From an uncultured Gammaproteobacteria bacterium (lineage in GTDB: Bacteria > Patescibacteriota > Patescibacteriia > UBA9934 > GWF2-40-263): 64,000 nt of DNA. Made by a program: the position numbers and the translations under genes. The notes beneath the pieces are model-generated. The model did not search any database and was not told the DNA's origin. It saw nothing but the letters and a program-made list of their open reading frames with translations. Positions 1,602 to 24,201 of this stretch are shown piece after piece; the stretch's first letter is position 1; every line of letters starts with the position of its first letter. The stretch spans positions 4,399 through 68,398 of the forward strand of contig CAZIDX010000007.1 of NCBI GenBank assembly GCA_964538435.1, given 5' to 3'.

Positions 1602-1630
1602 TTGACAAATGTGCTTTTTTGTGCTAATAT
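1602..1630 (+). promoter_or_regulatory. sigma70-like promoter TTGACA-17-TAATAT
   Basis: TTGACA 1602-1607, 17-nt spacer, TAATAT 1625-1630 in an AT-rich divergent intergenic region; about 170-nt leader before ATG 1801. Confidence 0.5.
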
Positions 1631-1800
1631 CGCATGTTCGCTTGAGACTGCGTTAGCCGCAACTAACAAAGAATCTATGCGACCCAAGTGCCCCGCCACA
1701 GGGGCAAACATATCAACCCAAGACCTTTGCCTGCCCGCGCGATGGAATGTGCGGACCAATGCGGGTGGGTGAAAAACCTCCGCACTGCAAAGGCAACATC

Positions 1801-2358
1801 ATGTCCCCTTCCGACTTCCGCGTCGTCTCCAGCGCTCGCAAGCTCGTCCTCGTTCCCAAGATCGATGCCCCTGTGGTGTCCTTCCCGGACGGAGCCGAGA
1901 TCAACAGCTGGGGAGCCAACAACGAGACCCCCACCGTGGTGGTCTGCAACGGCACCGAGGAGACCCCGTCCTGGCAGGGTGTCGACGCCGTGACCGGCTT
2001 CGTCATCGTCAACGAGGTTCCCGAGGAGATCGCCGAAGCCGCCCTGGCCATGTACGAGTCCGGCAACTCCCTCGAGGACGTGCTGGCCTACCTGGTCGAG
2101 AACGGCTGCGTGGATCAGTACACGAGCTCGTGGAGCTTCAAGAAGACCAAGCTCTCTGTGGCCGGCACCGTCCTGAGCGACAAGTCCGGCATCTACAAGC
2201 GTGACGACCGTGACCTGATCGCCTGCTGGCGTGAGGGTGACACCTTCTTCACCGCCCCGAGTGGTGAAGGTCGGGTCATCGAGCCCGGCATCCTGCAGCG
2301 GACCTACCGCCTGCCGGACGGAAGTCAGATCGATCTCGATCAGGTTCCCGAGAAGTAG
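1801..2358 (+). CDS. hypothetical protein (high-GC island gene)
   Basis: 185-aa ORF with ordinary composition and GC3 bias. Antisense ORF 1675..2523 is Gly/Arg-rich reverse-frame junk. First ATG at 1801 (the ORF opens at 1747 with an alternative start codon). Confidence 0.5.
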   Translation: MSPSDFRVVSSARKLVLVPKIDAPVVSFPDGAEINSWGANNETPTVVVCNGTEETPSWQGVDAVTGFVIVNEVPEEIAEAALAMYESGNSLEDVLAYLVENGCVDQYTSSWSFKKTKLSVAGTVLSDKSGIYKRDDRDLIACWREGDTFFTAPSGEGRVIEPGILQRTYRLPDGSQIDLDQVPEK

Positions 2359-2595
2359 AACTAGCTCTTCATCACCCCCGGGTGGTAGAAGGGCATGGGA
2401 TCCAACCCTTGTGTGTAACAGTGACCCCTGTGGTCTCTGGAATGCGCTAGGAGTGGTTCCATGGAATGCAACGCTGCGGCTGAGCATTCCTGAGAAGCGT
2501 CTGCGGACGTGACTCAACCCCACTACGGCCCAGGGGTAAAAGGGCAGCGACCACCGGTTAGCGCAGTTGCGGATGCGCGCCGGTGGTTTTGTTTT

Positions 2596-2624
2596 TAAAA
2601 CAGACGCGCTTGACGTCTGTTTGT
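2596..2624 (-). terminator. rho-independent terminator at GC-content junction
   Basis: Inverted repeat AAACAGACG-N7-CGTCTGTTT (2598-2622) flanked by A/T runs, immediately after the stop (2625-2627) of the 997-aa gene. Confidence 0.5.
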
Positions 2625-5618: not shown

Positions 5619-5684
5619 AGTGAGTTTATGTTACCACTTTTGGTCTTGCGCTGCGAGAGTGAAACAAGTATTATTCGTTTTAAT

Positions 5685-6443
5685 ATGAAACCATTTTTGA
5701 TTCTTCAACTTCGGAAAAATGATCAAGCCTCGGACGGTGAGTATGAGGCTTTTTTGGATTACGGCAATCTTGATGAAAAAGATACTGTGCGTGTGCGCAT
5801 GGATCGAGGTGAGTTACCTGAGGTGAATCTTAATGATTATTCTGGTGCAATCGTTGGAGGTGGTCCGTGGAATGTGAGTGATCCGGATGCGAAGAAGTCG
5901 CAAGAGCAAAAGCAGGCAGAGTTGTGGCTTGGTGATTTGTTTGCAGAAATTCTTGAGCGAGACTTTCCTTACCTTGGCGCATGCTATGGTTTCGGTGTTC
6001 TGGCCCACCTTGCTGGAGGCCGAGTAGATAAAGGAAGATACGGAGAAGATCCTGGTGCTGTTCGAGTACACCTGTCAAATGAAGGGAATGAAGACCCTCT
6101 TCTTAAAGATCTCCCAACTTCTTTTGACGCGCTTGTGGGACACAAAGAAGCATGTGAAGAGCTTCCGGAAGGTGCTGTGCTTCTTGGGGGTTCAGACACA
6201 TGCCCTCATCAAATGTTTCGTATAAAGAACAACATTTACACGACTCAGTTTCATCCAGAGCTTGATGTCGAAGGAATTTGTGTGAGGATTGATGTGTACA
6301 AGAATGCTGGGTACTTCCCTCCTGAGGATGCTGAGAAGCTGAAGGTTCAATGCAAAAAAGAAACTATTGATGTGCCAATGGAGATTTTGAGGAGATTTGT
6401 GAAGAGGTACACACAACAAACCCTTGACAGTACTGAATGTTGA
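5685..6443 (+). CDS. class I glutamine amidotransferase-like protein
   Basis: GACYGFG (nucleophile elbow Cys) and FHPE motifs typical of GATase1. ORF track start at 5505 overlaps the divergent gene, so first internal ATG 5685 (MKPFLILQL) is used; TATTAT box ~10 nt upstream. Confidence 0.7.
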   Translation: MKPFLILQLRKNDQASDGEYEAFLDYGNLDEKDTVRVRMDRGELPEVNLNDYSGAIVGGGPWNVSDPDAKKSQEQKQAELWLGDLFAEILERDFPYLGACYGFGVLAHLAGGRVDKGRYGEDPGAVRVHLSNEGNEDPLLKDLPTSFDALVGHKEACEELPEGAVLLGGSDTCPHQMFRIKNNIYTTQFHPELDVEGICVRIDVYKNAGYFPPEDAEKLKVQCKKETIDVPMEILRRFVKRYTQQTLDSTEC

Positions 6444-9127: not shown

Positions 9128-10132
9128 TTAGTAGTCGAGCCCCTCGCGGGCAGGGACGCCTGAGTAAAAGTAATGCCTGTGTAGGCGCATTTGTGTGATG
9201 AGATGGGCGCGGTCGAGAAACTCTTTTGGTGCATGGCGTCCGGTCATGATGACCTCGGTGTTATCTGGCTTGCTGTCGAGCAGCTTGAGCACATCACTTA
9301 CTTTGAGCATGCCTAGATCTGTGGTTGAGTTGATCTCGTCGAGAACCACCAAGTCACAACCCTCATCGAACATCTTTTGTGCAGCACTGAGTCCGCGCTG
9401 CGCTTCTTGCTTATCGGTATCTTGGACTGAGAAGTCAAAACGTCCAGTGTCAGGATCGATGCGATCTCGTCCTGTTGCAACATAATCAATCCCCTCGATT
9501 TGTTCGAGAACGTGACGTTCTGAGTAATGTGTCTCCCCTCCTTTGTCAAAATATACAATTCCAACTTTCTTTTCAACAGCTCGCGCTCGAATCACCTCTC
9601 CGAGTGCTGCAGTGGTCTTACCTTTTCCGTTTCCTGTGAAGACCTGAATGAGGCCATAGCCTTCTCGTCCTTTGATGCGCTCGTCCGTGCCGACCGTGAT
9701 GCCGAAGTGCTTTCTATAGACGTCAATGACATCAAACACGACCTGGTGAGCTGTTTCTTCAAATGAAAGCTGTGGGTTCATCCAAATAAGCTCGGTGTGC
9801 TCATCAGAGAGTGTGATTTTCACTCCTTCTTTGAGTCTGACAAGGTGAAAGATGCCGATGATTGGGTTATTCTCAACATCACCATTTACTCCCCAACGAT
9901 CAACATGAAGCGGTTCGAGCACCTCGAAGTCTCCTGCATTAATGCCTAGCTCTTCGGTAAGCTCTCGGATAAGAGCGTCGCGCGGCATCTCATTTGCATC
10001 CATGCGCCCGCCTGGAAAGTCGAGTTTTCCCTTTGCTTTTGAGTGGTCACCAATCCCGCTTTCTCTGATTAGAAGAATGCGACCAACACGATCAACAACA
10101 ACCCCTTTATTTGCTACAAACTTTTTTTCCAT
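9128..10132 (-). CDS. Nudix hydrolase fused to cob(I)yrinic acid a,c-diamide / corrinoid adenosyltransferase (CobA/CobO/BtuR)
   Basis: N-terminal Nudix box GGRMDANEMPRDALIRELTEELG. C-terminal IQVFTGNGKGKTTAALG P-loop, VVLDEI, IMTGR and terminal GLDY, collinear with CobA/BtuR. 3 bp from the downstream protease gene. Confidence 0.75.
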   Translation of the reverse strand: MEKKFVANKGVVVDRVGRILLIRESGIGDHSKAKGKLDFPGGRMDANEMPRDALIRELTEELGINAGDFEVLEPLHVDRWGVNGDVENNPIIGIFHLVRLKEGVKITLSDEHTELIWMNPQLSFEETAHQVVFDVIDVYRKHFGITVGTDERIKGREGYGLIQVFTGNGKGKTTAALGEVIRARAVEKKVGIVYFDKGGETHYSERHVLEQIEGIDYVATGRDRIDPDTGRFDFSVQDTDKQEAQRGLSAAQKMFDEGCDLVVLDEINSTTDLGMLKVSDVLKLLDSKPDNTEVIMTGRHAPKEFLDRAHLITQMRLHRHYFYSGVPAREGLDY

Positions 10133-11725: not shown

Positions 11726-12352
11726 CTAGCGCAAGAGCTGTGGGAGCGCAATGGCAGCCAGGATACCGATGATCGAGATGACGATCATGACCTCCACCAT
11801 TGTCGTGCTCTTGAGGATCTTCCTCTTGTTCACGAGGATGAAGCCTGCCGGAAGAAGCAGGGACAGGAGCAGTCCGAAGACCACGATCCGCTGATGCGGG
11901 AACAGAGCCACCATGGTCGGCAATGTGACACGTTCGTCACCATCGACCAGCACCTTGCGCACCTGCAGCAGAGCCAGGTCTCGATCTCCGCTGCTCATCT
12001 CTGCCGCAATGGCTTCATCTGCCTCGAGCTTGGCGCCTACGATGTTCTCGTACCAGTACCCGACGTCGTTACTGCCGCGCTCGAAGAACACGTTCGAGTG
12101 ACCGTAGTTAATCTCGTGTTCGTCCAGATACTCGATCGCGAGCCCCACCTTCTCACTGGCGCGCTCCAGGTTGGAGGCATCGGCAGCGAGCTTGAGGTTG
12201 TCGGTCACGTTGATGGAGAACAGGAGCGAAACCACGACCGCGTAGGCAGCGATCAGAAGCGCAGGCAGCAACGTGAACCCTGTACCTACCAGTATTGTGT
12301 TCCTATTGCTGCGCTCGAGCCTTTCTCTGTCACGTCCGGTAGGGATTGCCAT
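11726..12352 (-). CDS. hypothetical membrane protein (N-terminal TM, extracytoplasmic domain, two C-terminal TM helices)
   Basis: Antisense ORF 11369..12382 is His/Cys/Arg-rich junk. Directly follows the stop of 12363..13067 (operon). Perfect 20-bp palindrome ACCACGCCCGGGGGCGTGGT (11693-11712) downstream. Confidence 0.5.
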   Translation of the reverse strand: MAIPTGRDRERLERSNRNTILVGTGFTLLPALLIAAYAVVVSLLFSINVTDNLKLAADASNLERASEKVGLAIEYLDEHEINYGHSNVFFERGSNDVGYWYENIVGAKLEADEAIAAEMSSGDRDLALLQVRKVLVDGDERVTLPTMVALFPHQRIVVFGLLLSLLLPAGFILVNKRKILKSTTMVEVMIVISIIGILAAIALPQLLR

Positions 12353-12362: not shown

Positions 12363-13067
12363 TTACTCCGTGTGGATCTTGACGGTGTCGTTCATGGGGA
12401 AGAGACGAAAGCGTTCACCACTCTCATTCTCCATGATGAAGTAGTTGCCGGACTCGATGAGCTCCTGGATTCGAGCGTTCTCGTGATCCTTGAGTTGTGC
12501 TTCCACCTGCTCGCTCTCTTGTTCGCGCGGCTCTGCCAGATACTGCTGCTGGTCAGCGATGAGATCCCTGCGAACCTGCTTGGCTCGATACGGGTCAGAC
12601 AGCTCGCTTGCAAAGCCCAGAGCGCGGCTGTAAGCCTCATCTGTGCGCTCGCAACGCATGCGCCAGATCATCATCTCCTGGACGAACAAGTCGTGCTTGG
12701 ACTCGTCGATCTCCTGACACTGGGCCACGTAGGCCTCGAACCAGTCGGCGCCGAGGTAGCTGCCGTCATCTCGGACCTTGCAGTCGCGGGCCTTTTGCAG
12801 ATGCTCGCGCTTGAGACCTGAATAATGGAAGCAATTCACAGACCTCCACGCGATGATGATCGGCTCCTCGGTTTCAGGTGCACTCACCTTGACCTCGGCA
12901 GCCTGAGCCACGGTGTCCATGGACTCATCCGTGACCATAACGAATCCGATCACGACCCCGAACAGGACCAGACCGAACAGCGCCAGGTAAATCACGCCTG
13001 ATGGGAACGTGACGGGCTTGAGCTGATCGCGAATGCGCTTGCTCACGACCTTTGTTCGCTTGTTCAT
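12363..13067 (-). CDS. hypothetical single-pass membrane protein (high-GC island)
   Basis: GGAGGGGAG SD before ATG 13067; one N-terminal TM helix then a charged soluble domain. Confidence 0.5.
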   Translation of the reverse strand: MNKRTKVVSKRIRDQLKPVTFPSGVIYLALFGLVLFGVVIGFVMVTDESMDTVAQAAEVKVSAPETEEPIIIAWRSVNCFHYSGLKREHLQKARDCKVRDDGSYLGADWFEAYVAQCQEIDESKHDLFVQEMMIWRMRCERTDEAYSRALGFASELSDPYRAKQVRRDLIADQQQYLAEPREQESEQVEAQLKDHENARIQELIESGNYFIMENESGERFRLFPMNDTVKIHTE

Positions 13068-13170
13068 TTCTTCTCCCCTCCACTGGGTGACGGATATTGA
13101 ACTTTGGTGAACATGAGAGAATGCCTGAAAATCATCGTTTTGTCAATGGTTGGTGTATAATGTAGTCACT

Positions 13171-13743
13171 ATGTTTTTTCTAAAAGCCTTTATTGCTGGG
13201 TTTGTGATTAAGTCGATTGCAAGTTTTGATGACACGGTCACAAAGATCCCAGTGATCACCAGCCTGACTCAAACACGTGAAGGAAAAATTGCGTTTGCGA
13301 TTGGAAATCTTGGTGCGGTTGCGGTTGTCATTTTGATCGCTTCTGGGATAAGTGCACTTTTAAGTGACTTTGGTGCTCTGCGCTATATTTTAGCTGGACT
13401 CATCTTTTTGGTCGCACTTAATGCTCTTCGTCCTGCTCGCCAACATGCACGCAAGAAAAAACACGACCACCCGTCTGGGCTCAAACTCTTGTACCTAATC
13501 GGGATAGGGTTTGCCGTGTCGTTTGTTGCGCTTATTGATGACTCAGTGCTCTTTATCCCTCTCTTTGCAAACGAGGCTTTATCGAGCGCGTACGTTATTG
13601 TTGGAATCTTTGTATCGACGATTGTGAACTTGCTTCTTGTGATTTACTTTGCTGAGCAGTTTGAGCGTGTGAAGTACTCACACTTTGTTTCATTTGTGAT
13701 CTTGCTCATTATTGCTGGGCTGATTGCGTTTGGAGTGCTTTAA
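13171..13743 (+). CDS. hypothetical polytopic membrane protein
   Basis: Six hydrophobic helices. Track ORF opens at 13150 with an alternative start codon; first ATG is 13171, with TATAAT at 13156-13161. Confidence 0.45.
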   Translation: MFFLKAFIAGFVIKSIASFDDTVTKIPVITSLTQTREGKIAFAIGNLGAVAVVILIASGISALLSDFGALRYILAGLIFLVALNALRPARQHARKKKHDHPSGLKLLYLIGIGFAVSFVALIDDSVLFIPLFANEALSSAYVIVGIFVSTIVNLLLVIYFAEQFERVKYSHFVSFVILLIIAGLIAFGVL

Positions 13744-13756
13744 CAATTTGAAAACC

Positions 13757-14329
13757 TCACCCTAGGGGCGAGGTTCGTTGCCACAGGTCCACCAGCTCAT
13801 CAGCTAGGGCCTGTGTTTTTGTGTCTGCGACCGTGAGTCTACGCTCAAGGTCGTGAAGCACGTGTGTGCAGCAACTGGGAACGGGCTGTGTGCAGCCATT
13901 GATCTTGGTCTGCACTCTCCAGTCGATGCGGATGCCAGCGTCTTGGAATGCTTGCTCCCACTGAGAAAGCTCGTCAAAGCTCTTCCCAACGTACATGGCA
14001 TGTGTGCCACACGACATCATGACGTGCAGGTGCGGATTGTGAATGTTGCCAGGAAGATCACCCAAAACGATCTGAGCACTGTCAGCCAAGTAAGCCTGAA
14101 CAGCAGCCTCAACCTCTGGTAGACCAGCGTGCCACTGCTTTTGTCGCGCGCTCCAGGGCTTGAGCCCAAGAAGAGGGCCGTGGGTATCCGAGTAGACATC
14201 GATCTCGTGGAGACCAACACGCACATCAGAGCGGGCCTGGAGAAGCCTGTAGAGCGTGGTGCAGAGCGTGGACTTCCCGCTGTTAGCAGGACCACCGACA
14301 AGGAGACGAATCTGGTGAGGTGCGCTCAC
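13757..14329 (-). CDS. P-loop NTPase / small kinase-like protein
   Basis: Walker A LLVGGPANSGKST and Walker B-like IVLGDLPG. GTG start overlaps the Fic stop (GTGA) with GAGGTGA SD inside the Fic 3' end. ~57% GC. Confidence 0.55.
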   Translation of the reverse strand: MSAPHQIRLLVGGPANSGKSTLCTTLYRLLQARSDVRVGLHEIDVYSDTHGPLLGLKPWSARQKQWHAGLPEVEAAVQAYLADSAQIVLGDLPGNIHNPHLHVMMSCGTHAMYVGKSFDELSQWEQAFQDAGIRIDWRVQTKINGCTQPVPSCCTHVLHDLERRLTVADTKTQALADELVDLWQRTSPLG

Positions 14330-14940
14330 TGATCACCTCGCAATGCCCGGTAGTAGGCCTGAAAGACCTCGAGGCTCTGGTTCATGCGCTCGTAGTAGCT
14401 CCTGCGGTCTGCATAGATAGTGAGGGGCGCTCCTGCCTTGAGACAGGCCAGCGCGCTCCAGAATTTGGTCATGCGACCACAACCATCTGAGTATGGGTGA
14501 ATGCGGAAGTCGAGCTCGTACTCGAGTATTGCCAGGAATTCTGTGACTTGATCTTGTGTCAGTCCGGCCAGGCCAGACGCAAGCCACTTGAACCACACAC
14601 CCATTTCGATATCGATCCTACCAATGGGCACTCCATAGGCCTTGCCTGTGTCATGCTGGCGATACATGGAGCTGGTTTGGGTTCCTGATGTTACGGATGC
14701 AAAGAGCTGGAGCTCGAGCAGGCGCAGGTCGCGCACGCTCAGGTCACGATCTCGGTGATCCCACAGGCGATTTGCTGCGCAGACGAGTCCGCGCATTGCA
14801 CTTTCCTGCAGGGCCTCCCCTGTTTCTTCGGCCTGAGGTTTCCCCTCTCGACCCAGTGCATTGACTGAACCTGTCTGAACCGTGCGGCTCATGCCAGAAA
14901 TGCTCCGGAGGAGCACCTGGATGAACTCAGTCTTTTCCAT
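14326..14940 (-). CDS. Fic/Doc (Fido) family protein
   Basis: Fic active-site motif HPYSDGCGRMTKF (HPFx[DE]GNGR pattern) and upstream RDLRLLELQLF helix. Overlaps the HD gene stop by 14 nt. Confidence 0.65.
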   Translation of the reverse strand: MEKTEFIQVLLRSISGMSRTVQTGSVNALGREGKPQAEETGEALQESAMRGLVCAANRLWDHRDRDLSVRDLRLLELQLFASVTSGTQTSSMYRQHDTGKAYGVPIGRIDIEMGVWFKWLASGLAGLTQDQVTEFLAILEYELDFRIHPYSDGCGRMTKFWSALACLKAGAPLTIYADRRSYYERMNQSLEVFQAYYRALRGDQ

Positions 14941-15505
14941 GGCTACCTCCTAGGATCTTTTGAGCCTCTGCCAAGAGCATCTTGTGCAAAGGAACGCTGA
15001 CATCTTTAGCTATTGGAAGGAAAAAATCAACCGTCTTCTGTGCATAACGTGTCACAAAATCGGTATGCGAATCCTTAATACATTGCATGGCCCTACAGTT
15101 ATCCAACCGATCAACAAGCTTTACCATCTGTCCGTCGCGGCTGCTGGCCTTAATTTTCTTTAAAAATGCGTGATTATCAATCACATCGTCAGGAGAAGTG
15201 CATTCATCCACCAGTTGCCTGACATGCTTGTTTGTGAGGCGCTCAACCTTGTCTAGAGTGGTGTCTGTGTCCTCGATAACGTCGTGGAGGAGAGCTGCAG
15301 CCATTACGTCTGGATCTTGGTAGCCAAGTGTTTGATTGAGAATCAAAAAGCAGCGGTATAGGTGAACAAGTTGACACTCCTGGATCCGCTTGTCATTGCC
15401 ATGTACCTGCTGCACAAACTCAACAATAGGTTGCAAATGCCTGGGAAGCTGCTGTCGAACAAATTGAAAAACGTATTTTTCGTCTTGTGAGTATTCCCAG
15501 GTCAT
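14927..15505 (-). CDS. HD-domain (p)ppGpp-hydrolase-like protein (small alarmone hydrolase / Mesh1-like)
   Basis: H..HD metal-binding signature with AALLHDVIEDT identical in pattern to the RelA/SpoT HD hydrolase motif. TATAAT 10 nt upstream of the ATG (leaderless-like). Confidence 0.65.
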   Translation of the reverse strand: MTWEYSQDEKYVFQFVRQQLPRHLQPIVEFVQQVHGNDKRIQECQLVHLYRCFLILNQTLGYQDPDVMAAALLHDVIEDTDTTLDKVERLTNKHVRQLVDECTSPDDVIDNHAFLKKIKASSRDGQMVKLVDRLDNCRAMQCIKDSHTDFVTRYAQKTVDFFLPIAKDVSVPLHKMLLAEAQKILGGSHGKD

Positions 15506-15540
15506 AGTGGGGTTATTATATCGAACTTTCTAACAGATCT

Positions 15541-15572
15541 GAAAACAGGGGCCGTAACCCCTGTTTTTTCTT
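15541..15572. terminator. rho-independent terminator after nrdJ
   Basis: CAGGGGCCGTAACCCCTG hairpin (15546-15563) with T-runs on both strands. Confidence 0.7.
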
Positions 15573-15574
15573 GT

Positions 15575-18500
15575 CTAGCTACATCCGCTTGTTGCACCGC
15601 AGTTTAGGCACTTATAGCAAGCTGCGTTGCGAACCATGATTGAGCCACAGGTGTCACAGGCAGGGGCGTCTGATTGATTATCAAACGTTTGCGTGTGCTT
15701 TGAGTCCTTCTCTTCTTTTGCGTCAAAGAGCTTTGTTTGTACTTCATCTGTCTGCTCTTCTTCTTCCTCATCTTTTTTCACAAGTTCAGCCACGTCTTCA
15801 TCTGCAACAGGTGCGACGGTCTCGCTGAGCTGGGCCGTGTTGATCCCAACAGCCACCTGACTCTCTTGAGGAAGGAACTTGATTGCAAGCCAACGGAAGA
15901 TGTAGTCCGTGATGGACTTGGCGATTCTGATTTGAGGATTGTTTGTGTAGCCTGATGGCTCAAAACGCATGTGAACAAACTTGTTCACGAGAACCTCCAG
16001 TGGCACCCCGTACTGAAGGCCGATTGAGATGGCTGTGGCAAAACTATCCATGAGCCCGCTAATCACAGACCCTTCCTTTGACATGGTAATGAAGATTTCC
16101 CCAGGAGTTCCGTCGTTGTAGAGCCCAACCGTGATGTATCCCTGATGGTTTCCTACGGCAAACTTATGCGTAACAGCCCTGCGCTCGTCTGGAAGCCGGC
16201 GGCGACGCGGTTTGCTTGATGAATCGACTTTTACGGTTTGGACAATCTGTTTTTCTGCTTCTTTAATTTCTGCTTTTTCTTCTTCTACGTTCTGCTTCTT
16301 TGCATCTGATTCTTTTGAAGTTGTGAGTGCCTGCTGGCGCTTTGATCCATCACGGTAGATGGCAATGGCCTTGAGTCCCATCTTCCATCCCTGCATGTAA
16401 ACATCGGCAATATCTTCTTTTGTTGCCTCATGTGGCATGTTCACAGTCTTTGAGATGGCACCTGAGATGAAAGGTTGGACAGCGGCCATCATGCGGATGT
16501 GGCCCATGTAATGAATGGTGCGTGTTCCGTTTGCAGCTTTAAATGCGCAATCAAATACGGCCAAATGCTCAGGTTTGATGTGAGGAGCGCCTTCAATAGT
16601 ATCTTTTTCTTCGATAAAGTCCTGAATCTCTTTTCGCTCAGACCCAGTGTAGCCAAGGCGTGTGAGGGCTTCTTCCACGGTTCCATTCACCATCTTGAGC
16701 ATTCCACCTCCAACAAGCCATTTGTACTTTACAAGAGCGATATCAGGCTCAACACCAGTGGTGTCGCAATCCATGAGGAAAGAGATGGTTCCGGTTGGAG
16801 CGAGTACGGAGATCTGTGCATTGCGGAGCCCGTGACTACTTGCATGTTCAACGGTGTTGTCCCAGCACTTGCGCGCTTCTGTGAGCAAGTCGGCTGGCAC
16901 TCCTTCTTCTTTGATCTTGTAAGACTCGTCGCGGTGCATGCGCATGACTTCCATGGCTGGTTCTTCGTTTGCTTTGTATCCAGCAAAGGCTCCGCGCTTT
17001 TCTGCGATTTTTGATGACTGGAAATAGCAGTGACCGCTCTGGAGTGAGGTGATAGCAGCGGCTAAGTTGCGTCCTTCGTCTGAATCGTAAGGGAGCCCGC
17101 GGCTCATAAGGAGCGCACCGAGGTTTGCGTAGCCGATTCCAAGAGGTCGGTAGTCAAGACTGTTCTGCTCAATGGCTGGAGTTGGATAAACCGAGCTTCC
17201 TACAATAATCTCCTGCGCTGTGATAATGATTTCGTTTGCTTTTTTGAATGCCTCTGTATCAAATACCATGCGTCCGTTTTCCTCCTTTCGGAACTTCATG
17301 AGGTTGAGAGACGCCAGGTTGCATGCACTGTCATTGATAAACATGTACTCAGAGCATGGGTTTGAGGCAAAAATGCGATCTGTGTTCTTGCAGGTGTGCC
17401 ACTTGTTAATAGTGGTGTCGTACTGGATTCCTGGATCTCCACACTGCCACGCAGCATCTGTCATAAGATCCATGAGATCCTGTGCCTTCCAGGTTTGAAT
17501 GGTCTCGCCCGTTGTCACTGCCTTTGTGTCCCAGTTTTCTCCTTTTTCAACCGCACTCATGAACTCATCGTTTACACGCACTGAGTTGTTTGCATTTTGG
17601 AAATAGATTGATCCATAAGCTGGGCCGTCGATTGATCCGTCATACCCGGCATCCATGAGCGCCCAAGCCTTTTTCTCTTCTTCAACTTTGCAAGTAATAA
17701 ATTGATCAATGTCAGGGTGTCCAACATCCAAAATCACCATTTTTGCGGCACGACGTGTTTTCCCTCCTGATTTGATGACTCCAGCAAATGCATCCAGTCC
17801 TTTCATGAACGACACAGGTCCTGAAGCTTTTCCGTTGCTTCCTCCAAGATACTCGTGGCGGGAACGGAGCTTTGAAAGACTTGAACCAGCACCAGACCCA
17901 CCCTTAAAGAGCATGCCCTCTGTGACACAGAGGTTCAGGATTGAGCGCATGTCATCCTCAACTGAGTTGATGAAGCAGGCAGAGCATTGCTGTGGTCGCG
18001 GTGTTCCCACATTAAACCAAACCGGCGAGTTAAATGCTGCCATTTGGTTTACGAGAATGTAATGAAGCTCATCCTCGAAGGTTTGTGCGTCTTCTTTTGT
18101 TTGAAAATAACTTCCCTTCCGCCCCCAGTCAGAAATAGTTGTTGCCACTCGCCCAACAAGCTGCTTTACAGAAGTCTCCCGATCTTCCTTTCCAATAGTT
18201 CCGTAAAAGTATTTTGAAACAACAATGTTTGTTGCTGTCTGAGACCAACTCTTTGGCATCTCTACATCCTTTTGCTCAAACACCAAGTTGCCTTTATGGT
18301 CCATGATGGTGGCATCGCGTTTTTCCCATTCGATCTCGTCGTATGGATGCACGTCCTTTTTTGTGAAGTAGCGTTTTACATCGATTCCTTTTCCGTACTG
18401 TTCCTTTTTGTCATTCACACGCTCCTCATTGCGGAACTGTGAGTAACGCTTTGCCACATGGACGAGGTTGGCGTCAATTAAAACAAGACCAACAACTTCA

Positions 18501-18781
18501 CGAACGTCAGCAAATGATGGGTTGCTGTGTCCGTTGAATTGTTTGGTCAATCGGGTGATTACCTGTCCGGTAACACGATCCGCCAACTGTTTTTCTTTCA
18601 TGCCAGCTGAAACAAGAGCGCTCTTTAGCGAAGCATGAAGCTTTTTACTATCAAAATCTTGTTCGTCACCACTACGTTTACGTATACATTTTACTGAAGT
18701 CATAAACTCCAATACAGCATCTGAAATATTAGCAGTGTCCGTTTTTTTCTCACGAACCTGTTTGGTGGTGGTGTCCGACAT
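15575..18781 (-). CDS. nrdJ: adenosylcobalamin-dependent (class II) ribonucleotide reductase with N-terminal ATP-cone and C-terminal Zn-ribbon
   Basis: 1068 aa. ATP-cone at the N-terminus, RNR catalytic core (NPCSE, GLMD), C-terminal CDTCG...CYKCLNCG zinc ribbon. Confidence 0.9.
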   Translation of the reverse strand: MSDTTTKQVREKKTDTANISDAVLEFMTSVKCIRKRSGDEQDFDSKKLHASLKSALVSAGMKEKQLADRVTGQVITRLTKQFNGHSNPSFADVREVVGLVLIDANLVHVAKRYSQFRNEERVNDKKEQYGKGIDVKRYFTKKDVHPYDEIEWEKRDATIMDHKGNLVFEQKDVEMPKSWSQTATNIVVSKYFYGTIGKEDRETSVKQLVGRVATTISDWGRKGSYFQTKEDAQTFEDELHYILVNQMAAFNSPVWFNVGTPRPQQCSACFINSVEDDMRSILNLCVTEGMLFKGGSGAGSSLSKLRSRHEYLGGSNGKASGPVSFMKGLDAFAGVIKSGGKTRRAAKMVILDVGHPDIDQFITCKVEEEKKAWALMDAGYDGSIDGPAYGSIYFQNANNSVRVNDEFMSAVEKGENWDTKAVTTGETIQTWKAQDLMDLMTDAAWQCGDPGIQYDTTINKWHTCKNTDRIFASNPCSEYMFINDSACNLASLNLMKFRKEENGRMVFDTEAFKKANEIIITAQEIIVGSSVYPTPAIEQNSLDYRPLGIGYANLGALLMSRGLPYDSDEGRNLAAAITSLQSGHCYFQSSKIAEKRGAFAGYKANEEPAMEVMRMHRDESYKIKEEGVPADLLTEARKCWDNTVEHASSHGLRNAQISVLAPTGTISFLMDCDTTGVEPDIALVKYKWLVGGGMLKMVNGTVEEALTRLGYTGSERKEIQDFIEEKDTIEGAPHIKPEHLAVFDCAFKAANGTRTIHYMGHIRMMAAVQPFISGAISKTVNMPHEATKEDIADVYMQGWKMGLKAIAIYRDGSKRQQALTTSKESDAKKQNVEEEKAEIKEAEKQIVQTVKVDSSSKPRRRRLPDERRAVTHKFAVGNHQGYITVGLYNDGTPGEIFITMSKEGSVISGLMDSFATAISIGLQYGVPLEVLVNKFVHMRFEPSGYTNNPQIRIAKSITDYIFRWLAIKFLPQESQVAVGINTAQLSETVAPVADEDVAELVKKDEEEEEQTDEVQTKLFDAKEEKDSKHTQTFDNQSDAPACDTCGSIMVRNAACYKCLNCGATSGCS

Positions 18782-18924
18782 AGGGCGAGTATGTTGGGGA
18801 TCTATTAAGTTGTTATTAGCGAAAGGATCTTAACAAATTTGGCAGAATAAAAGAAGATCCACTTAGGATCATCTCTTCACTCCTGAAAGGGTCCAGATGG
18901 GATGATTCTTCTTCCCCACTGCGA

Positions 18925-18940
18925 CCACTACATGTTGTGG
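18925..18940 (-). promoter_or_regulatory. NrdR box 1 (CCACTACATGTTGTGG)
   Basis: 16-bp imperfect palindrome of the NrdR-box type, downstream of the -10 element. Confidence 0.6.
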
Positions 18941-18949
18941 TCCTGTTCT

Positions 18950-18978
18950 ATTGTAGACCACTATATGTAGTGGTGTCA
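18950..18978 (-). promoter_or_regulatory. nrdJ promoter TTGACA-17-TACAAT (minus strand)
   Basis: -35 is the rc of 18973-18978, -10 is the rc of 18950-18955. Confidence 0.55.
18958..18973 (-). promoter_or_regulatory. NrdR box 2 (CCACTATATGTAGTGG) within promoter spacer
   Basis: 16-bp palindrome, centre 33 bp from box 1, lying between -35 and -10. Confidence 0.6.
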
Positions 18979-19009
18979 AAATGCGGTTATCCACATATTT
19001 TGACGACAC

Positions 19010-19588
19010 TTAGAACCCCATGCTCAGATTGATTGATGCCTTTTCTTCAATTTTATCGGAAAAATCAACAGGGATGGGCCTTCGTCCTCCCAATCGATCT
19101 TCGTAGGCCAGTGCGTTGTACTTTTTTCCGTACTCGTAAACGTCCTTTGTCACCTTTACGTCCTGCAGGCAGTAATCTTTAATCTTCTGGATCTCCCCTT
19201 GCTTCCACCACTCTACCGCTTGGAGTCCATGACCTGATTTTCTGTGACCTACAGATGCTGCTGCCACATCATCAAGCTTGAGACGGAATCCAAGAGCCTT
19301 GTGAATTTCTTCGAGAATGTCGAGGTTTGGAAAATCGAGGAAGTTGCCGGCGTAATAATTGTTCATCACAGGAAGATCAAAGCCCTTGCTGTTGTATCCA
19401 ATAATGCGGCCAGATTTTTCAAGTCGCTGGTAGAGTTGGCCTAGCTCATGCTCCTCAAATGCTTCGAAGGTGTCTGTCTCATAAAAATAGACTCCAACAA
19501 CAGAGATTTTAAGCTTGTCTGTGAAATACCCACCGACTTCTTGAAATGTATTCTGGGTCTCAATATCGAGAACCACCTCATTATTCAT
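19010..19588 (-). CDS. DEDD-family 3'-5' exonuclease (DnaQ-like)
   Basis: Exo I LDIETQ, Exo II GYNSKGFDLPV, Exo III YCLQD motifs. Confidence 0.65.
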   Translation of the reverse strand: MNNEVVLDIETQNTFQEVGGYFTDKLKISVVGVYFYETDTFEAFEEHELGQLYQRLEKSGRIIGYNSKGFDLPVMNNYYAGNFLDFPNLDILEEIHKALGFRLKLDDVAAASVGHRKSGHGLQAVEWWKQGEIQKIKDYCLQDVKVTKDVYEYGKKYNALAYEDRLGGRRPIPVDFSDKIEEKASINLSMGF

Positions 19589-19642
19589 AGGGATCTTGGA
19601 GTGATAACGGCAGTATTATAGCACACCGGACTTTTCCACAAT

Positions 19643-20179
19643 CTAGGTGATCTCGTAGAGGTAAATCGTGGTAAATCCAAGCGTTTGTTGCTCTATCTCT
19701 TTGAGGTCCTTGAACCTGAAATCTCGTGAGATTACGCGTGTTCCTGCTGGATATCTTTTCTTTAGGATGGGGGTCAGACGCTCGTTAAACTCAGGGAATA
19801 GATAGGCAAAGATGACATCTGCGTCTGGGAGGTCAGTCTTGAATATGTTTGCACGCAGGAACGTGGCGTTTTCCAGCTTTGCCCGCCTGGCCCTGAATCT
19901 AGACACCCGAACCAACCAGCCCATCTGCTCAATCCCAACACCGATTGCCCCAAGCTTGGCAGCTTCGAGTACGAGCGAGCCATCACCTGAACCAAGATCC
20001 AGGACACACTGGCCTGGCTGAAGCTCTGCTAGATCCATCATGGCTTTTGAGATTTTTTTGCGAGTTCTTACCCAAGGAACAGAGACAACACCACTTACAA
20101 GCAGGTACCCAGCAAAAATCAAGAGCCCTATTAGAAAGAGCTCTGTGAGAAATATACAAAATAGAATCAGTGTCTTCAT
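19643..20179 (-). CDS. membrane-anchored class I SAM-dependent methyltransferase
   Basis: N-terminal TM helix; VLDLGSGDG motif I. Confidence 0.65.
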   Translation of the reverse strand: MKTLILFCIFLTELFLIGLLIFAGYLLVSGVVSVPWVRTRKKISKAMMDLAELQPGQCVLDLGSGDGSLVLEAAKLGAIGVGIEQMGWLVRVSRFRARRAKLENATFLRANIFKTDLPDADVIFAYLFPEFNERLTPILKKRYPAGTRVISRDFRFKDLKEIEQQTLGFTTIYLYEIT

Positions 20180-21594
20180 GGTGTAATCTTTGCGCTTGCA
20201 GCAGCTGCTTTCACCCCCTCTGAAAAGGTTGGGAATGCGTGAATCATGCTGGCCAGCTTGTCTACAGTGGCATTTAAGTGAATAGCTAGCGCGATCTCGT
20301 GTATCACCTCACCAGCTCGCTCTCCAACCATGTGACCTCCAAGAACCTTCCGAGTCTTTGGGTGCGCCACAATCTTTATGAGTCCAAAGCGCGTATTCTC
20401 AGTAACTGCGCGCCCGAGTGCACCAACATCATAGCTACCAACCAATGCGCTCTTGAACTTTGTCTCGACCTCTTGCTGCGTTAGGCCAACAGACGCCACT
20501 TCTGGGTCTGTGAACGTAACACGTGGCACAACACGCTCATCAATCTTTTTCGCAGGCTCGCGTTTCTTTTTTGCCAACATCCCAGCATTTAGACCTGCAA
20601 TGTAGCCTTCGTGGTGGGCAGTGTGGGTGAAGCGCATGCCCCCATTTACGTCTCCGGCTGCAAAAATGTGCTTTACATTTGTTCTTTGCTCTTTTGATGC
20701 AACAATGTCTCCGCGCTCGCTTAATTCGACTCCAGACGCGTTGATCTCTAGCCCATCGATGTTTGATTGCTTTCCGGTAGCAAGAATGATCTGCTCAACA
20801 GCAAGGGTCTGCTCCCCATCGACTGACTCAACCCTGAGGCCATATACCCCACCGCGCGCGTCAATGATTTCGTTGGTCTTTGTGTTGACTCTGATGTCAA
20901 CACCGAGTTTTTGCAAACGCTCATGCGCGATCTGTGTGATCTGGACATCCTCTCGGCTCAAAATCGTTGGTGCCGCCTGAAGAAGGGTCACGCGCGTTCC
21001 AAAGCTTGCAAAAAACGTGGCGAGCTCACATCCAACTGGCCCTGCACCGATCACTGCCAATGTCTTTGGCTGCCTTTTTACTTGCACGGCCTTTTTCCAG
21101 GTCCAGTAGGTGCCTTTTTCCAGCCCAGGTATTGATGGGATTCGATCTCTGGCTCCAGTTGCAATCACAACCGTTTTTGCGTAAATATTTTGCCCGTCCA
21201 CTTGAATCATGTGATCATCCAGAAATGTTGCTTGGCCTGTTTTGACGGTTACGCCTAGTTTTTCAAAAATTCGCACATAGCGCTCCCCCACCTTCCCTCC
21301 ACCTGTGATTGCTTCAACAACCTCGTCTCGGTACTGAGTGACTTTTTCAAAATCAAAAGAAAGGTTTCCAAGCTCGATTCCAAGCTCTCGCGCGTGCCTT
21401 GCCTTGTGATACATCTTTGCTGCCCTAAGAAGAGCCTTTGTGGGCACACAGGCATAGTTTGGACACTCACCCCCAAGCTTTTCTTTTTCGATCACACATA
21501 CGCTTGCTCCTGTGCTCACAGCCGCTTCTGCAGCAGAAAATCCTGCAGATCCGCTTCCAATAATCACGACATCAAATGTTGATTGTGCTGACAT
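20176..21594 (-). CDS. FAD-dependent pyridine nucleotide-disulfide oxidoreductase (dihydrolipoyl dehydrogenase family)
   Basis: GSGSAG FAD site, redox-active GGECPNYACVPTK, NAD site GAGPVG, C-terminal HAFPTFSE dimer-interface motif. ATGA overlap with the upstream gene. Confidence 0.75.
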   Translation of the reverse strand: MSAQSTFDVVIIGSGSAGFSAAEAAVSTGASVCVIEKEKLGGECPNYACVPTKALLRAAKMYHKARHARELGIELGNLSFDFEKVTQYRDEVVEAITGGGKVGERYVRIFEKLGVTVKTGQATFLDDHMIQVDGQNIYAKTVVIATGARDRIPSIPGLEKGTYWTWKKAVQVKRQPKTLAVIGAGPVGCELATFFASFGTRVTLLQAAPTILSREDVQITQIAHERLQKLGVDIRVNTKTNEIIDARGGVYGLRVESVDGEQTLAVEQIILATGKQSNIDGLEINASGVELSERGDIVASKEQRTNVKHIFAAGDVNGGMRFTHTAHHEGYIAGLNAGMLAKKKREPAKKIDERVVPRVTFTDPEVASVGLTQQEVETKFKSALVGSYDVGALGRAVTENTRFGLIKIVAHPKTRKVLGGHMVGERAGEVIHEIALAIHLNATVDKLASMIHAFPTFSEGVKAAAASAKITP

Positions 21595-21597
21595 AGA

Positions 21598-22593
21598 TTA
21601 GTTTTCAAATGCGCCGCGCGCTGCCTCCCAAAGACGTGTGTCTCCGGCCTTTTTTAAGTAATACCACCATTCAGCTCCCCAAAGATAGGTTTCGCTCACA
21701 CCTGTTTTTGCAGCAAACTCAATGTTGGTCTGGAGCATTTCAGCTGTGAACGCGTCGTACCATTCAGCAGGCTGCTTGCTTTCGATGGGTTCTGGGAACC
21801 ATGGCTCAGCCTGGAGCTCTGAGACGATAATGTCGTCTACATATCCGCTTACAGCACCTGATCGGAAGAAGTAATACTCAGGGCTGAGTGGATACACAAA
21901 ATATCCAAAGAGATCGTTCCAGGTCTGCCTGTACAGTGAGAATCCAAGCACATCAGCTGATTGAGCGGCGTCTAGCCATGGTCCAATCTCACCACTCACT
22001 GTCACTTGAATCGGTCTGTCGTCAAGGCGGCGAACAAGATCTACACGATCCTGGAAGTTCTTCATTGAAATATCTGGACACTCACCAAATGGGAAAAAGG
22101 GTTCGTTTTCTACTTGCCAACGCACAATGGCTGGATTGTCTTTGTATCGAAGAACCGCCGCTTGCATAAACGCAAGCAAGGCCTCTTGTCTTTGTGTGTC
22201 ACTCAAAGTCTCTGCCCAGTCTGGAATAAAACACTCTGGCCATCTTGGTACTTTTTCTCCCACAACCATTGTCATACTGACATTATGATCTTCTGAGTAG
22301 TTCATGATCCAGTCGTAGCGAGACCAATCAAACTCCCCATCAACTGGCTCGATATCAGACCAGTACATTGGGAGCCTGACATGACGCACACCCAGATCTT
22401 GAATCAATGCGGCGTACACTGTGCTGTACATGAGGTTTAGCTGGTCTGAGTAGAGGGTTGAGAATGTGATTCCGTATTCTGTTTCTGGAACTGGTCTGTC
22501 ATTGATCCAATTTGAGGCAAAAGAAAAAACCACCGCAGTGGCAATAACAACGGCAACAAGCGCAATCACGTTTGTTGTTTTTGATGTATGCAA
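21598..22593 (-). CDS. membrane-anchored clan GH-A glycoside hydrolase (GH5-like TIM barrel)
   Basis: N-terminal TM; WQVENEP acid/base motif typical of GH-A (GH5/GH42) enzymes. Confidence 0.45.
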   Translation of the reverse strand: MHTSKTTNVIALVAVVIATAVVFSFASNWINDRPVPETEYGITFSTLYSDQLNLMYSTVYAALIQDLGVRHVRLPMYWSDIEPVDGEFDWSRYDWIMNYSEDHNVSMTMVVGEKVPRWPECFIPDWAETLSDTQRQEALLAFMQAAVLRYKDNPAIVRWQVENEPFFPFGECPDISMKNFQDRVDLVRRLDDRPIQVTVSGEIGPWLDAAQSADVLGFSLYRQTWNDLFGYFVYPLSPEYYFFRSGAVSGYVDDIIVSELQAEPWFPEPIESKQPAEWYDAFTAEMLQTNIEFAAKTGVSETYLWGAEWWYYLKKAGDTRLWEAARGAFEN

Positions 22594-22608
22594 ACCCCCA
22601 GTATTAAT

Positions 22609-24195
22609 CTAAATTTCTTCTCTCTTTTCCCTCAGGAATGCGAGCCAGCTCTCTACAAGGCCGATGGCCGCTTTAAACGGTGCTTCGATAATGAAGTCAA
22701 AGAAGAATAGGAAAATATTTACGCGCGGTGCGCGGATCGCAACCCATCGTCCTGCACGTACGATTGGCAAGAAAATCACATCAACAATGGTTCCAACGAC
22801 ACCTCGTGCTGTGTCAACGATAAGCAGCTCTCTTCGGATGTTTCGGATACGGAGCCCGAAGTAGGCAACAAGACAGAGGAAGAAGATGAAGAAGAAGATG
22901 GACAGCGCGTTGAAGTGCAAAGTCACCAGGAATCCAGCGATTACAGCGATGGTTGCAAGCAGGATAGCAACATAGGCTCCATTGAAGATCCACCAGAGCG
23001 CTCCTCGTCCCCATGGGCGCTTTTGCTTGTATACAAGCCCAAAATCATCTCCAAGCCCCAGAAGCGCATGCACTTCCTCGAGGACTTTTTCTGTGTTTTG
23101 TTTCTTTGGAATACGCACAGAAAGCCCAATCACAGCCAAGAGCAATGGTGGGAATAAGATGTTTACCATCAGCGGCATGTAGTCTGTTGTGTGCAGGACC
23201 AGGGATTCGTATGGGTATTCGACCAGGATAGCAAGGATTGATTTTGTGAACAGCAAGAAGAACGCTGCGCGCACAACTGTTCGGTTGAGCCGCTTCCTGA
23301 GCGAGCCATAACGAGCTTCAGCGGCTTTTGTAATAGCTGTATCAATGGTTGTGGTGTCTCCTGAGTACAATGCACTAGAAAACGCTTCTGGGCTGTCTTT
23401 TACAATGTCTGTGAGCAGATGGAAGACAACGCCGTGACGTCTTACAAATCGGAATACAGCGTCTTGAGACTTGTGATAGATCTGATTTTCAATTGACTCA
23501 ATGACCGTGCCAATATTCATGGCAACTTCTTTTGCAACGGCATCGCCTGATTTTGCTGTGCGCCACTTTGGATAGTAGAGCGTGAGGATGCGATAGCGCA
23601 GCGTGGCCACATTTGACTTGAGCACAGAGCGATGCACCGCAACGTAGAGCTGCAGGTCTCGATCAGCCTCACTGATAACCTTTGTTTGCCAGTCAATGCG
23701 TTTTTTCAGTTCTTGATACGCATAGCTTGCTAGAGCCTCGTCAACGCATGGTGGTCCAAGCACGTACTCGATTTCAACTGAGAGCACATCAAGAAGCCAC
23801 TTGTAGACATACTGCCCCTCTTTGGTCTCCCCCTCGAGTGTTCCAAACATGAGTTTGTACTTCTCGAGAATCTGAGAAACCTTTGCAATTGTGTTTGTTG
23901 GGACTTCTTTGTTTGGAAGATACTTTGCCCAAACAAGCTCTCGGAGAAGTGTCTCTGCTAAGTGGTCTGATGGATCCCCTTCTGAGAGACGACGCTTGAG
24001 AATGCGCTTGATTGCGTTGCGTCTGAGCAAATGCTCTTCATCGTACTCAAGCGTGTTGCGCACGGTCTCATACGCAGAAGCAGCCGCAGAGACAGTGTCT
24101 GAGACGTGAATAGTATCCTCTTCTTTTTTTCCTTCCTCTTCTTCTCGGCGGATCTGGATGATGGTGCCAAGGAGGTGTTCGAGTGCTTTGTCCAT
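22609..24195 (-). CDS. hypothetical membrane protein (cytoplasmic N-domain plus C-terminal TM bundle)
   Basis: 528-aa ORF with several C-terminal hydrophobic helices; no motif recognised. Confidence 0.45.
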   Translation of the reverse strand: MDKALEHLLGTIIQIRREEEEGKKEEDTIHVSDTVSAAASAYETVRNTLEYDEEHLLRRNAIKRILKRRLSEGDPSDHLAETLLRELVWAKYLPNKEVPTNTIAKVSQILEKYKLMFGTLEGETKEGQYVYKWLLDVLSVEIEYVLGPPCVDEALASYAYQELKKRIDWQTKVISEADRDLQLYVAVHRSVLKSNVATLRYRILTLYYPKWRTAKSGDAVAKEVAMNIGTVIESIENQIYHKSQDAVFRFVRRHGVVFHLLTDIVKDSPEAFSSALYSGDTTTIDTAITKAAEARYGSLRKRLNRTVVRAAFFLLFTKSILAILVEYPYESLVLHTTDYMPLMVNILFPPLLLAVIGLSVRIPKKQNTEKVLEEVHALLGLGDDFGLVYKQKRPWGRGALWWIFNGAYVAILLATIAVIAGFLVTLHFNALSIFFFIFFLCLVAYFGLRIRNIRRELLIVDTARGVVGTIVDVIFLPIVRAGRWVAIRAPRVNIFLFFFDFIIEAPFKAAIGLVESWLAFLREKREEI

Positions 24196-24201
24196 ACGTT
24201 T

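Follow-up and report, generated by a model that had tools for sequence, protein, structure and literature searches.

Organisation of the locus

The window analysed here, that is, the whole 64 000 nt stretch of contig CAZIDX010000007.1 from an assembly labelled as an uncultured Gammaproteobacteria bacterium, carries three adjacent open reading frames (ORFs) for an HD-type hydrolase, a Fic-like protein and a P-loop nucleoside triphosphatase (NTPase). This HD-Fic-NTPase triad is a real conserved module whose genes are locked together genetically, and not a chance neighbourhood, because it was found in seven contexts and four arrangements, because fusion proteins occur and because the three families co-diverge. 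The three ORFs and the motifs identified in their products are listed below with their positions in the window. SAH denotes small alarmone hydrolase and AF2 denotes AlphaFold2.

14927..15505, minus strand: predicted stand-alone RelA/SpoT-type HD phosphohydrolase, SAH/Mesh1-like, 192 aa, ATG start (Pfam HD_4, TIGR00691 and Mesh1 matches).
15269..15286, minus strand: HD catalytic motif HDVIED (H74, D75, E78, D79), read from the translation; invariant.
14326..14940, minus strand: predicted minimal Fic-fold transferase of the 'DGCGR' clade, 204 aa, ATG start (AF2, Foldseek and profile matches).
14836..14889, minus strand: conserved N-terminal segment of the Fic-like protein, SRTVQTGSVNALGREGKP; S18, T20, G24 and K34 invariant; no glutamate.
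14632..14685, minus strand: putative target-docking flap, GTQTSSMYRQHDTGKAYG; R94 and T98 invariant; YR aligned with g.YR of canonical Fic.
14464..14499, minus strand: variant Fic signature, HPYSDGCGRMTK, with C154 for the canonical Asn and K159 for the second Arg (profile alignment and translation).
13757..14329, minus strand: predicted SIMIBI-class P-loop NTPase of a rare family, 190 aa, GTG start (AF2, Foldseek and PADLOC).
14267..14296, minus strand: Walker A motif GGPANSGKST, with Pro at the position of the MinD/ParA signature lysine.
14180..14209, minus strand: switch-I-like motif HEIDVYSDTH, family-specific; E42, D44, S47, D48 and T49 invariant.
14045..14068, minus strand: Walker B/G3-like motif VLGDLPGN (DxxG type), conserved in the alignment.

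At the HD/Fic junction (CTAGGAGGTAGCCATGGAAAAGACTGA / AGGAGGTAGCCATGGAAAAGACTGA) the reading frames overlap by 14 nt and an AGGAGG Shine-Dalgarno sequence is present. The Fic/P-loop junction (GCGAGGTGATCAGTGAGC / GAGGTGATCAGTGA) is a 4 nt GTGA overlap, with GAGGTGA as the Shine-Dalgarno sequence. The ORF coordinates and a direct reading of both junctions confirmed the chain of three translationally coupled minus-strand genes reported in the preliminary description of this DNA, and the motifs quoted there, AALLHDVIEDT and GGPANSGKST, are present in the translations. Overlaps of start and stop codons, or near-abutment, are kept in the orthologous triads L001, L003, L004, L005, L009 and L010, and the tight coupling of the genes is therefore not due to chance.

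Conservation of the triad

Hidden Markov models built from our own alignments were scanned over all of the loci fetched (designated here by L numbers), and gene calls together with ORF lists were used to set the arrangement at each. The ten independent contexts are as follows, with P standing for the P-loop gene.

Context a: window, L001/L012, L002 and L003; HD-Fic-P; after NrdJ.
Context b: L004; HD-Fic-P; ECF sigma/TetR/RND genes on one side and Ser/Thr kinase, Mur ligase and penicillin-binding protein (PBP) genes on the other.
Context c: L005/6, L009 and L011; HD-Fic-P; near SecDF, TrhO and SecA.
Context d: L010 (high GC); HD-Fic-P; after an ABC-F gene.
Context e: L027/28/29; Fic-HD-P; between NusG-L11-L1 and DHFR-APH-nucleotidyltransferase-HIT-dCMP deaminase-ThyA.
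Context f: L015/16/17/21/24; P-loop and HD genes on one strand with the Fic-like gene between them on the other (P> <Fic HD>); after SecDF.
Context g: L013/14; HD and Fic-like genes divergent from the P-loop gene (<HD <Fic, P>).
Context h: L007/8; P-loop and HD genes only; near ribonucleotide reductase (RNR) and glutaredoxin genes.
Context i: L019/20; P-loop gene alone.
Context j: L022/23/26; P-loop gene alone; beside dCTP deaminase/Tmk or DHFR/ThyA genes.

The full triad is present in seven of the ten, in four gene orders or orientations. In more distant triads, tightly packed genes for ribosomal proteins and dTMP synthesis surround the module and resemble those of candidate-phyla-radiation (CPR) bacteria.

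Two fusion proteins, a further sign that the genes are linked in function, involve these families. In P0089 (428 aa) the P-loop protein is fused to a DGCGR Fic-like domain (E 2.3e-24 for the Fic part), and in P0120 (697 aa) a CCA-enzyme-like HD domain is fused to a member of the P-loop family. P0028 (266 aa) was rejected as a further fusion, as it is probably a locus of the L015 type read through into the antisense strand of the Fic gene. In pairwise-identity matrices for 11 loci the three families diverge in step (r = 0.87-0.93, Mantel p = 2e-4), having stayed together in inheritance over a deep divergence and through changes of gene order.

The preliminary description had noted that the Fic and P-loop genes are richer in GC than the HD gene, and had read this as insertion of the pair beside a resident HD gene. 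The difference is real, with GC fractions in the window of 0.454 for the HD gene, 0.566 for the Fic gene and 0.572 for the P-loop gene. However, all triads with full-length genes show the same step, both in GC and in GC at third codon positions (GC3). These are the triads of the window, L003, L004, L005, L009, L010, L013 and L015, some of which share only 20-40% protein identity and which lie in backgrounds from 41% to 57% GC. Values of GC3 for HD, Fic and P-loop are 0.37, 0.66 and 0.56 in L003, 0.42, 0.61 and 0.58 in L004, and 0.53, 0.71 and 0.76 in L010. This recurrence, together with the co-divergence of the three families, rules out insertion of a Fic and P-loop pair; the step is a property of the module and not the scar of a recent insertion. 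The GC3 difference thus persists between genes that are adjacent and co-inherited.

The HD protein

By its sequence, the HD protein is a bona fide stand-alone enzyme of the SAH/Mesh1 type with the full set of catalytic residues. It scores above the gathering cut-off of Pfam HD_4 (43.1 bits against 27.2; E 4.6e-11) and matches the hydrolase region of NCBIfam TIGR00691 spoT_relA (1.1e-14). Among solved structures it is closest to human and fly Mesh1 (Mesh1/HDDC3, PDB, 1.5e-11) and to Rel hydrolase domains. Pfam matches are to HD-type families only and there is no synthetase domain, making it a single-domain protein. In eight divergent orthologues, with identities down to about 20%, R40, H48, H74, D75, E78, D79, K129, D132 and N136 are invariant, which we take to be the catalytic set of the RelA/SpoT hydrolases. 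The matches and the invariant residues bear out the earlier assignment of this protein as small-alarmone-hydrolase-like.

The Fic-like protein

The Pfam Fic score of the middle protein is only 19 bits, under the gathering score of 24. Despite this, the modelled protein is assigned a true Fic fold, because four lines of evidence agree. A profile of seven Fic-clade sequences matches FICD (E 5.6e-8), and hhalign with a canonical class II Fic from locus L019 gives a probability of 96%. The AF2 model (pLDDT 87.8, pTM 0.87) has the all-helical Fic core fold, and Foldseek searches with this model return almost exclusively Fic proteins, the top 47 all being Fic. The best PDB folds are FICD (E 5.6e-5, TM 0.62), Clostridioides difficile Fic (CdFic), IbpA Fic2, SoFic and EcFicT.

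The clade is a rare one, as word-indexed searches of 5.8 billion proteins recovered four and then only seven relatives. H148, D152, C154, G155 and R156 are invariant in the seven members of the clade, whose mutual identity is 25-49%, and the clade signature is HP[YFW]xD[GA]CGRxx[KR], with the last Arg mostly replaced by Lys. The canonical HxFx(D/E)GNGRxxR is thus altered, with Cys for Asn, while the His, Asp, Gly and Arg are retained.

The preliminary description had found no partner inhibitor of the FicA type and had proposed a search for an intramolecular inhibitory helix. A regular-expression scan found no conserved occurrence of the inhibitory motif [ST]xxxE[GN] in the Fic-like, HD or P-loop proteins or in any of the aligned homologues, and no small FicA-like ORF is present in positions 13000-16000, which agrees with that description. 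The conserved N-terminal segment S18-x-T20-x3-G24...K34-P forms a short helix at residues 19-23 in the AF2 model. When this SRT...G segment was compared with the class II inhibitory helix by hhalign to canonical Fic, the alignment had zero confidence in that region. By its spacing the segment would lie at the site of the inhibitory helix in class II Fic proteins, and a natural de-repression by exchange of E for G there is a conjecture from that spacing.

One relative of the clade is encoded by a phage. On the IMG/VR contig L030 (IMGVR_UViG_3300014839_000016), positions 1593-5942 encode a 1449 aa polyvalent protein beside the terminase large subunit, with a Portal_Mu domain at residues 36-349, a DGCGR Fic-like domain at 581-762 (HPFTDGCGR, E 6.7e-25) and a Zeta-toxin kinase at 1253-1395. 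This domain composition suggests that the DGCGR clade can serve as an effector outside the triad, and it leaves room for a role in conflict.

The P-loop protein

On its AF2 model (pLDDT 92), the P-loop protein is a SIMIBI-class NTPase, belonging to a family without a characterized member. Foldseek matches are to CbiA-like proteins, MinD (TM 0.70), ApbC/Mrp, SRP54/Ffh/FtsY, ATPase-type HypB, BchL/NifH and the N-domain of CTP synthase. The family motifs are GGPANSGKST, HEIDVYSDTH after strand 2, K57-P-W59..R62 and GDLPGN. HEIDVYSDTH is a candidate Mg/substrate site and also a candidate target loop for the Fic-like protein. The protein lacks the signature lysine (KGGxGK[ST]) that marks members of the MinD/ParA group.

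The earlier label 'kinase-like' does not hold. Shikimate and uridine kinases reach TM values of only 0.33-0.41 in the Foldseek search, below the SIMIBI matches, and no Pfam or NCBIfam family, kinases included, matches significantly. There is likewise no significant match by sequence to a protein of solved structure (best E 0.0018, to the P-loop only), and the match to APS kinase (E 0.01) covers only the P-loop region. On these results a housekeeping kinase is rejected.

The only named relatives of the family are the Csx3 models of PADLOC, namely PDLC01515 (8.8e-11, residues 4-148) and PDLC01045 (2.9e-9, positions 105-249), and the match is confined to their ATPase part. The Crn3/Csx3 ring nuclease carries a fused ATPase domain "of unknown function" (PMC6546367, PMC12409355, PMC9676260). 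Word-indexed searches of the same 5.8 billion proteins recovered 13 relatives of the P-loop protein. When 1.84 billion representatives were searched exhaustively with its profile in HMMER, only 323 passed E<=1e-3 and 32 passed E<=1e-30.

Genes for deoxynucleoside triphosphate (dNTP) synthesis repeatedly adjoin members of the P-loop family. These are NrdJ in the window, RNR and glutaredoxin in L007, and either dCTP deaminase/Tmk or DHFR-HIT-dCMP deaminase-ThyA in the CPR-like loci L022, L026, L027 and L028; in L027 the stop codon of the P-loop gene lies over the start of the DHFR gene in a 20 nt overlap. This association may represent only two independent lineages.

Transcription signals and other features of the window

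The gene on the 5' side of the triad encodes NrdJ, a B12-dependent class II ribonucleotide reductase (15575-18781; 1446 bits to NF005122). Two features were found between it and the HD gene.

15541..15568, minus strand: GC-rich hairpin separating the stop codon of NrdJ from the start of HD (pattern scan; RNA fold with an 11 bp stem, minimum free energy -17.8 kcal/mol, z -2.1).
15515..15543, minus strand: sigma-70-like promoter TTCAGA-17-TATAAT (10/12 match to the consensus, by consensus match only).

The hairpin is likely to be the terminator of the upstream NrdJ gene. As the hairpin and then the promoter-like site separate NrdJ from the HD start, the triad appears to be its own transcription unit. 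The end of the -10 box is 9 nt from the HD ATG (15503-15505) and there is no Shine-Dalgarno sequence ahead of this start, so the mRNA, predicted to begin at about 15508, may be leaderless or nearly so. Downstream of the triad, a convergent gene for a TerC-like membrane protein leaves 13 nt between its own end and the stop codon of the P-loop gene. A NUDIX-CobA/BtuR (ATP:corrinoid adenosyltransferase) fusion is encoded at 9128-10132, 5 kb from the adenosylcobalamin-dependent NrdJ. The window gave no Rfam match, either to a cobalamin riboswitch or to another family.

Several observations concern the remainder of the window. It contains no tRNA gene, and its GC content is a marked mosaic that ranges from 42% to 66% in 1 kb windows. 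The prepilin-type N-methylation motif of ORF 11726-12352 is at the C-terminal instead of the N-terminal end, a position suggestive of either a frameshift or a pilin gene read in the wrong frame. Positions 2625-5618 encode a 997 aa protein with a C-terminal prokaryotic LSDAT/SLOG domain (nucleotide-sensor type), the orthologue of which is conserved in L001. A perfect 58 bp tandem repeat (2.9 copies, 100% identity) lies at 57398-57563, in an intergenic position within a glycosyltransferase/polysaccharide cluster. The adjacent paralogues at 60963-62585 and 62589-63992 match PHROG 3677 'protease' (1.2e-59 and 2.6e-24) and are the only clearly phage-like matches in the window.

Two related metagenome-assembled genomes (MAGs; loci L005, L009 and L011) bear the label 'uncultured Gammaproteobacteria'. 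This label is doubtful, because the SecA encoded in L005 (9465-12182) scores higher against Bacillus subtilis SecA (826 bits) than against Escherichia coli SecA (759 bits). SecD of this group of MAGs contains an inserted rotamase domain of the PpiC type.

Possible functions of the triad

The reading that we favour, tentatively and at a confidence short of even, is that the triad is a write/erase modification switch. The Fic-like protein would be the writer, using an NTP to place a nucleotide-derived group, either a nucleoside monophosphate (NMP), a phosphate or a pyrophosphate, on a hydroxyl; its Fic fold, its invariant catalytic His, Asp, Gly and Arg and the lack of [ST]xxxE[GN] in the three proteins and their homologues point to this role. 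The NTPase would be the physical partner of the writer, most likely its substrate or gate, as suggested by a SIMIBI fold with an invariant, hydroxyl-rich switch-I motif, and the Y-S-D-T stretch of that loop, with Y46, S47 and T49, is the candidate modification site. The HD protein would be the eraser, hydrolysing the phosphoester or pyrophosphate product and resetting the system. That role is suggested by the invariance of the full RelA/SpoT hydrolase residue set and by Mesh1 and Rel hydrolase domains being its closest solved relatives. Fic/Doc enzymes modify Thr, Tyr and Ser in the switch regions of P-loop GTPases, and GlnD, whose HD domain takes UMP off PII, sets a precedent for the reversal of protein nucleotidylation by an HD enzyme. 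As the triad lies on the chromosome among housekeeping genes, an endogenous role is favoured; it would then be a regulatory switch passed on by vertical descent, perhaps with a link to nucleotide or dNTP metabolism, rather than a mobile addiction module.

Four points weigh against a write/erase switch. P-loop homologues with no Fic or HD gene nearby (L019/20 and L022/26) keep the switch-I motif as well; it is thus an intrinsic NTPase motif and does not establish a modification site. The Fic domain of the P0089 fusion has Arg in place of the catalytic His, which suggests binding rather than catalysis in that protein. The L030 polyvalent protein has a Fic domain of the clade with neither an HD domain nor a SIMIBI NTPase. 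To our knowledge, all RelA/SpoT-type HD enzymes characterized so far have nucleotides or tRNA 3' ends as their substrates and not modified proteins.

A second possibility, which we regard as rather doubtful, is a tricistronic toxin-antidote or abortive-infection module like aTfaRel-faRel-aT2faRel, with a de-repressed Fic-like protein as the toxin that arrests growth, the HD protein enzymatically reversing its product and the NTPase as a neutralizer or sensor. The order of SAH, transferase and third gene, with overlaps, mirrors that of the FaRel operon, in which the SAH antitoxin neutralizes toxic products (PMC11782079). The Fic-like protein has no inhibitory Glu and has generic Fic matches to PADLOC PDC-S04 and SoFic, the P-loop protein is homologous to the accessory ATPase domain of type III CRISPR systems, and the DGCGR clade occurs beside a Zeta-toxin kinase in the phage polyvalent protein.

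The context argues against a mobile toxin-antitoxin (TA) module, because of the housekeeping neighbours, a syntenic block that includes the triad and the lack of plasmid or phage copies. Searches with tblastn found no match to the Fic-like or P-loop protein in collections of 72,556 plasmids and 50,697 phage genomes, and in IMG/VR there was no relative of the P-loop protein and a single match to the Fic clade, L030, which is not a triad. The triads are embedded in housekeeping operons, with NrdJ, SecDF, NusG-L11-L1, DHFR/ThyA, an ABC-F protein and PBP/Mur genes as neighbours, and no integrase, transposase, cas gene, other defence gene or repeat array was noted near any of them. No tandem or CRISPR-like repeat array lies near the triad in the window, and no cas genes were found among the window ORFs scanned, with no systematic cas search made. 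The window and L001 share a syntenic block of 81.5% identity at 13138-24892 with the triad inside it. The adjoining segment 10892-13138, which contains high-GC (55-59%) ORFans, is not in L001, and its flanks are 72-81% identical. Co-divergence of the three families is consistent with vertical descent, the gene order is variable, and the family is extremely rare, unlike TA families.

A third, unlikely alternative is a pathway directed at nucleotides or RNA. In it the Fic-like protein, the P-loop protein or both would produce a nucleotide or RNA end that is nucleotidylated or 3'-(pyro)phosphorylated, for example an alarmone not made by a RelA/SpoT homologue, and the HD protein would degrade this product. 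Here the HD protein keeps all of the residues for 3'-pyrophosphohydrolase chemistry, the sole chemistry documented for its family (PMC11782079). P-loop relatives are fused both to Csx3/Crn3, a processor of cyclic oligoadenylates, and to a CCA-enzyme-like HD domain, and weak matches to CLP1_P (polynucleotide kinase) were found. Several loci also lie beside genes for NrdJ, glutaredoxin, DHFR, ThyA, dCMP or dCTP deaminases, Tmk and HIT, but this dNTP-gene association is, as noted above, perhaps that of two independent lineages only. Moreover, the fold search ranks NTPase switches and ATPases over kinases, with Clp1 outside the top 50 matches, and every characterized Fic, Doc or AvrB enzyme known to us modifies proteins.

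A more specific and still less probable proposal is that the DGCGR Fic, alone or with the NTPase, is a (pyro)phosphoryl or nucleotidyl transferase outside the RelA/SpoT homologue (RSH) group that makes an alarmone-like, 3'-modified nucleotide or RNA end, with the HD protein as its dedicated hydrolase. If this were true, uncultured bacteria with reduced genomes would have a full second-messenger circuit of synthesis, degradation and sensor, and the ATPase domain that accompanies the CRISPR ring nuclease Csx3/Crn3 in fusion proteins would also gain a function.

It is improbable that the NTPase is a maturation factor or metallochaperone (compare HypB, UreG and MeaB), regulated by the Fic-like protein, for loading or gating the metal or cofactor of the HD protein or the neighbouring B12-dependent RNR. 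Weak matches to the SIMIBI/G3E relatives ATPase-type HypB, MeaB/ArgK and UreG, and the proximity of NrdJ and the Nudix-CobA fusion, are in its favour, but a conserved Cys/His metal cluster is missing from the NTPase, triads of the L015 type do not keep H50, and RNR or B12 genes are absent from most triad loci.

That three unrelated genes lie together by coincidence is effectively refuted by the seven contexts, four arrangements, fusions and co-divergence, and retains a negligible probability. The preliminary description had reserved this explanation for the case of a housekeeping kinase in a triad that is not conserved, and had proposed a survey of co-occurrence. The survey found the triad conserved as a unit and no housekeeping kinase was identified.

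Relationship to known systems

The closest parallel in gene organization is the toxSAS operon aTfaRel-faRel-aT2faRel of Cellulomonas marina (PMC11782079), which also has a small HD hydrolase (SAH) first, an NTP-using transferase in the middle and a third gene, all tightly arranged. However, the transferase in the triad has a predicted Fic fold and no protein of the triad matches RelA_SpoT synthetase. The third gene encodes a predicted SIMIBI NTPase and not a type II antitoxin, the gene order varies, and the context is non-mobile and housekeeping.

The class II Fic AMP-transferases FICD/HYPE, CdFic and SoFic share with the middle protein the fold (TM about 0.5-0.65), the catalytic His, the acid, the Gly-x-Gly-Arg nest and the YR of the flap. 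They differ from it in the motif Asn, for which the DGCGR clade has Cys, in the last position, which is Lys/Arg in the clade, and in having the [ST]xxxE[GN] motif. The protein is also minimal at 204 aa, with no TPR, HTH or DUF4172 domain. The type II TA systems FicT-FicA/VbhT-VbhA and Doc-Phd similarly combine a Fic-fold enzyme with an overlapping upstream partner gene, but here the partner is a 192 aa enzyme in place of a small antitoxin with an inhibitory helix, a third, NTPase gene is obligatory and no plasmid or phage copies were found.

The Csx3-AAA and AAA-Csx3 proteins of type III CRISPR loci have an ATPase domain to which the P-loop protein is homologous. In contrast to these proteins, the latter has no Csx3/Crn3 domain, there is no CRISPR-like array in the window, and the partners are a Fic-like and an HD protein. 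Phage polyvalent proteins (portal/MuF-fused) are linked to the triad through the DGCGR-type Fic domain of the L030 protein, which differs in having no HD or SIMIBI NTPase partner and in being virion-associated.

Pairs of writers and erasers include SidM/SidD and AnkX/Lem3, which act on Rab1, and the GlnD UTase with its HD uridylyl-removing domain, which acts on PII. The likeness of these to the triad is conceptual, namely a transferase, a reversing hydrolase and a target NTPase or regulator. SidD and Lem3 are not HD proteins, and these systems are host-directed effectors or a single multidomain protein, whereas the triad consists of three co-encoded small cytoplasmic proteins.

The HD-Fic-NTPase architecture is absent from PADLOC and no description of it was found in the literature searched, in keeping with the earlier statement that this is not a known TA architecture. 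The component superfamilies are known, but the DGCGR Fic clade, a functional context for the Csx3-associated ATPase family and the architecture itself appear to be undescribed. The new Fic clade breaks two rules of its family, the motif Asn and the inhibitory glutamate, and with its two obligatory partners the question of its substrate and chemistry comes down to a tractable reconstitution of three proteins. The triad also extends the stand-alone RelA/SpoT-type hydrolases beyond their role as toxSAS partners. If the HD protein does erase the product of the Fic-like protein, either Fic chemistry or the substrate range of the SAH enzymes would be broader than is known at present.

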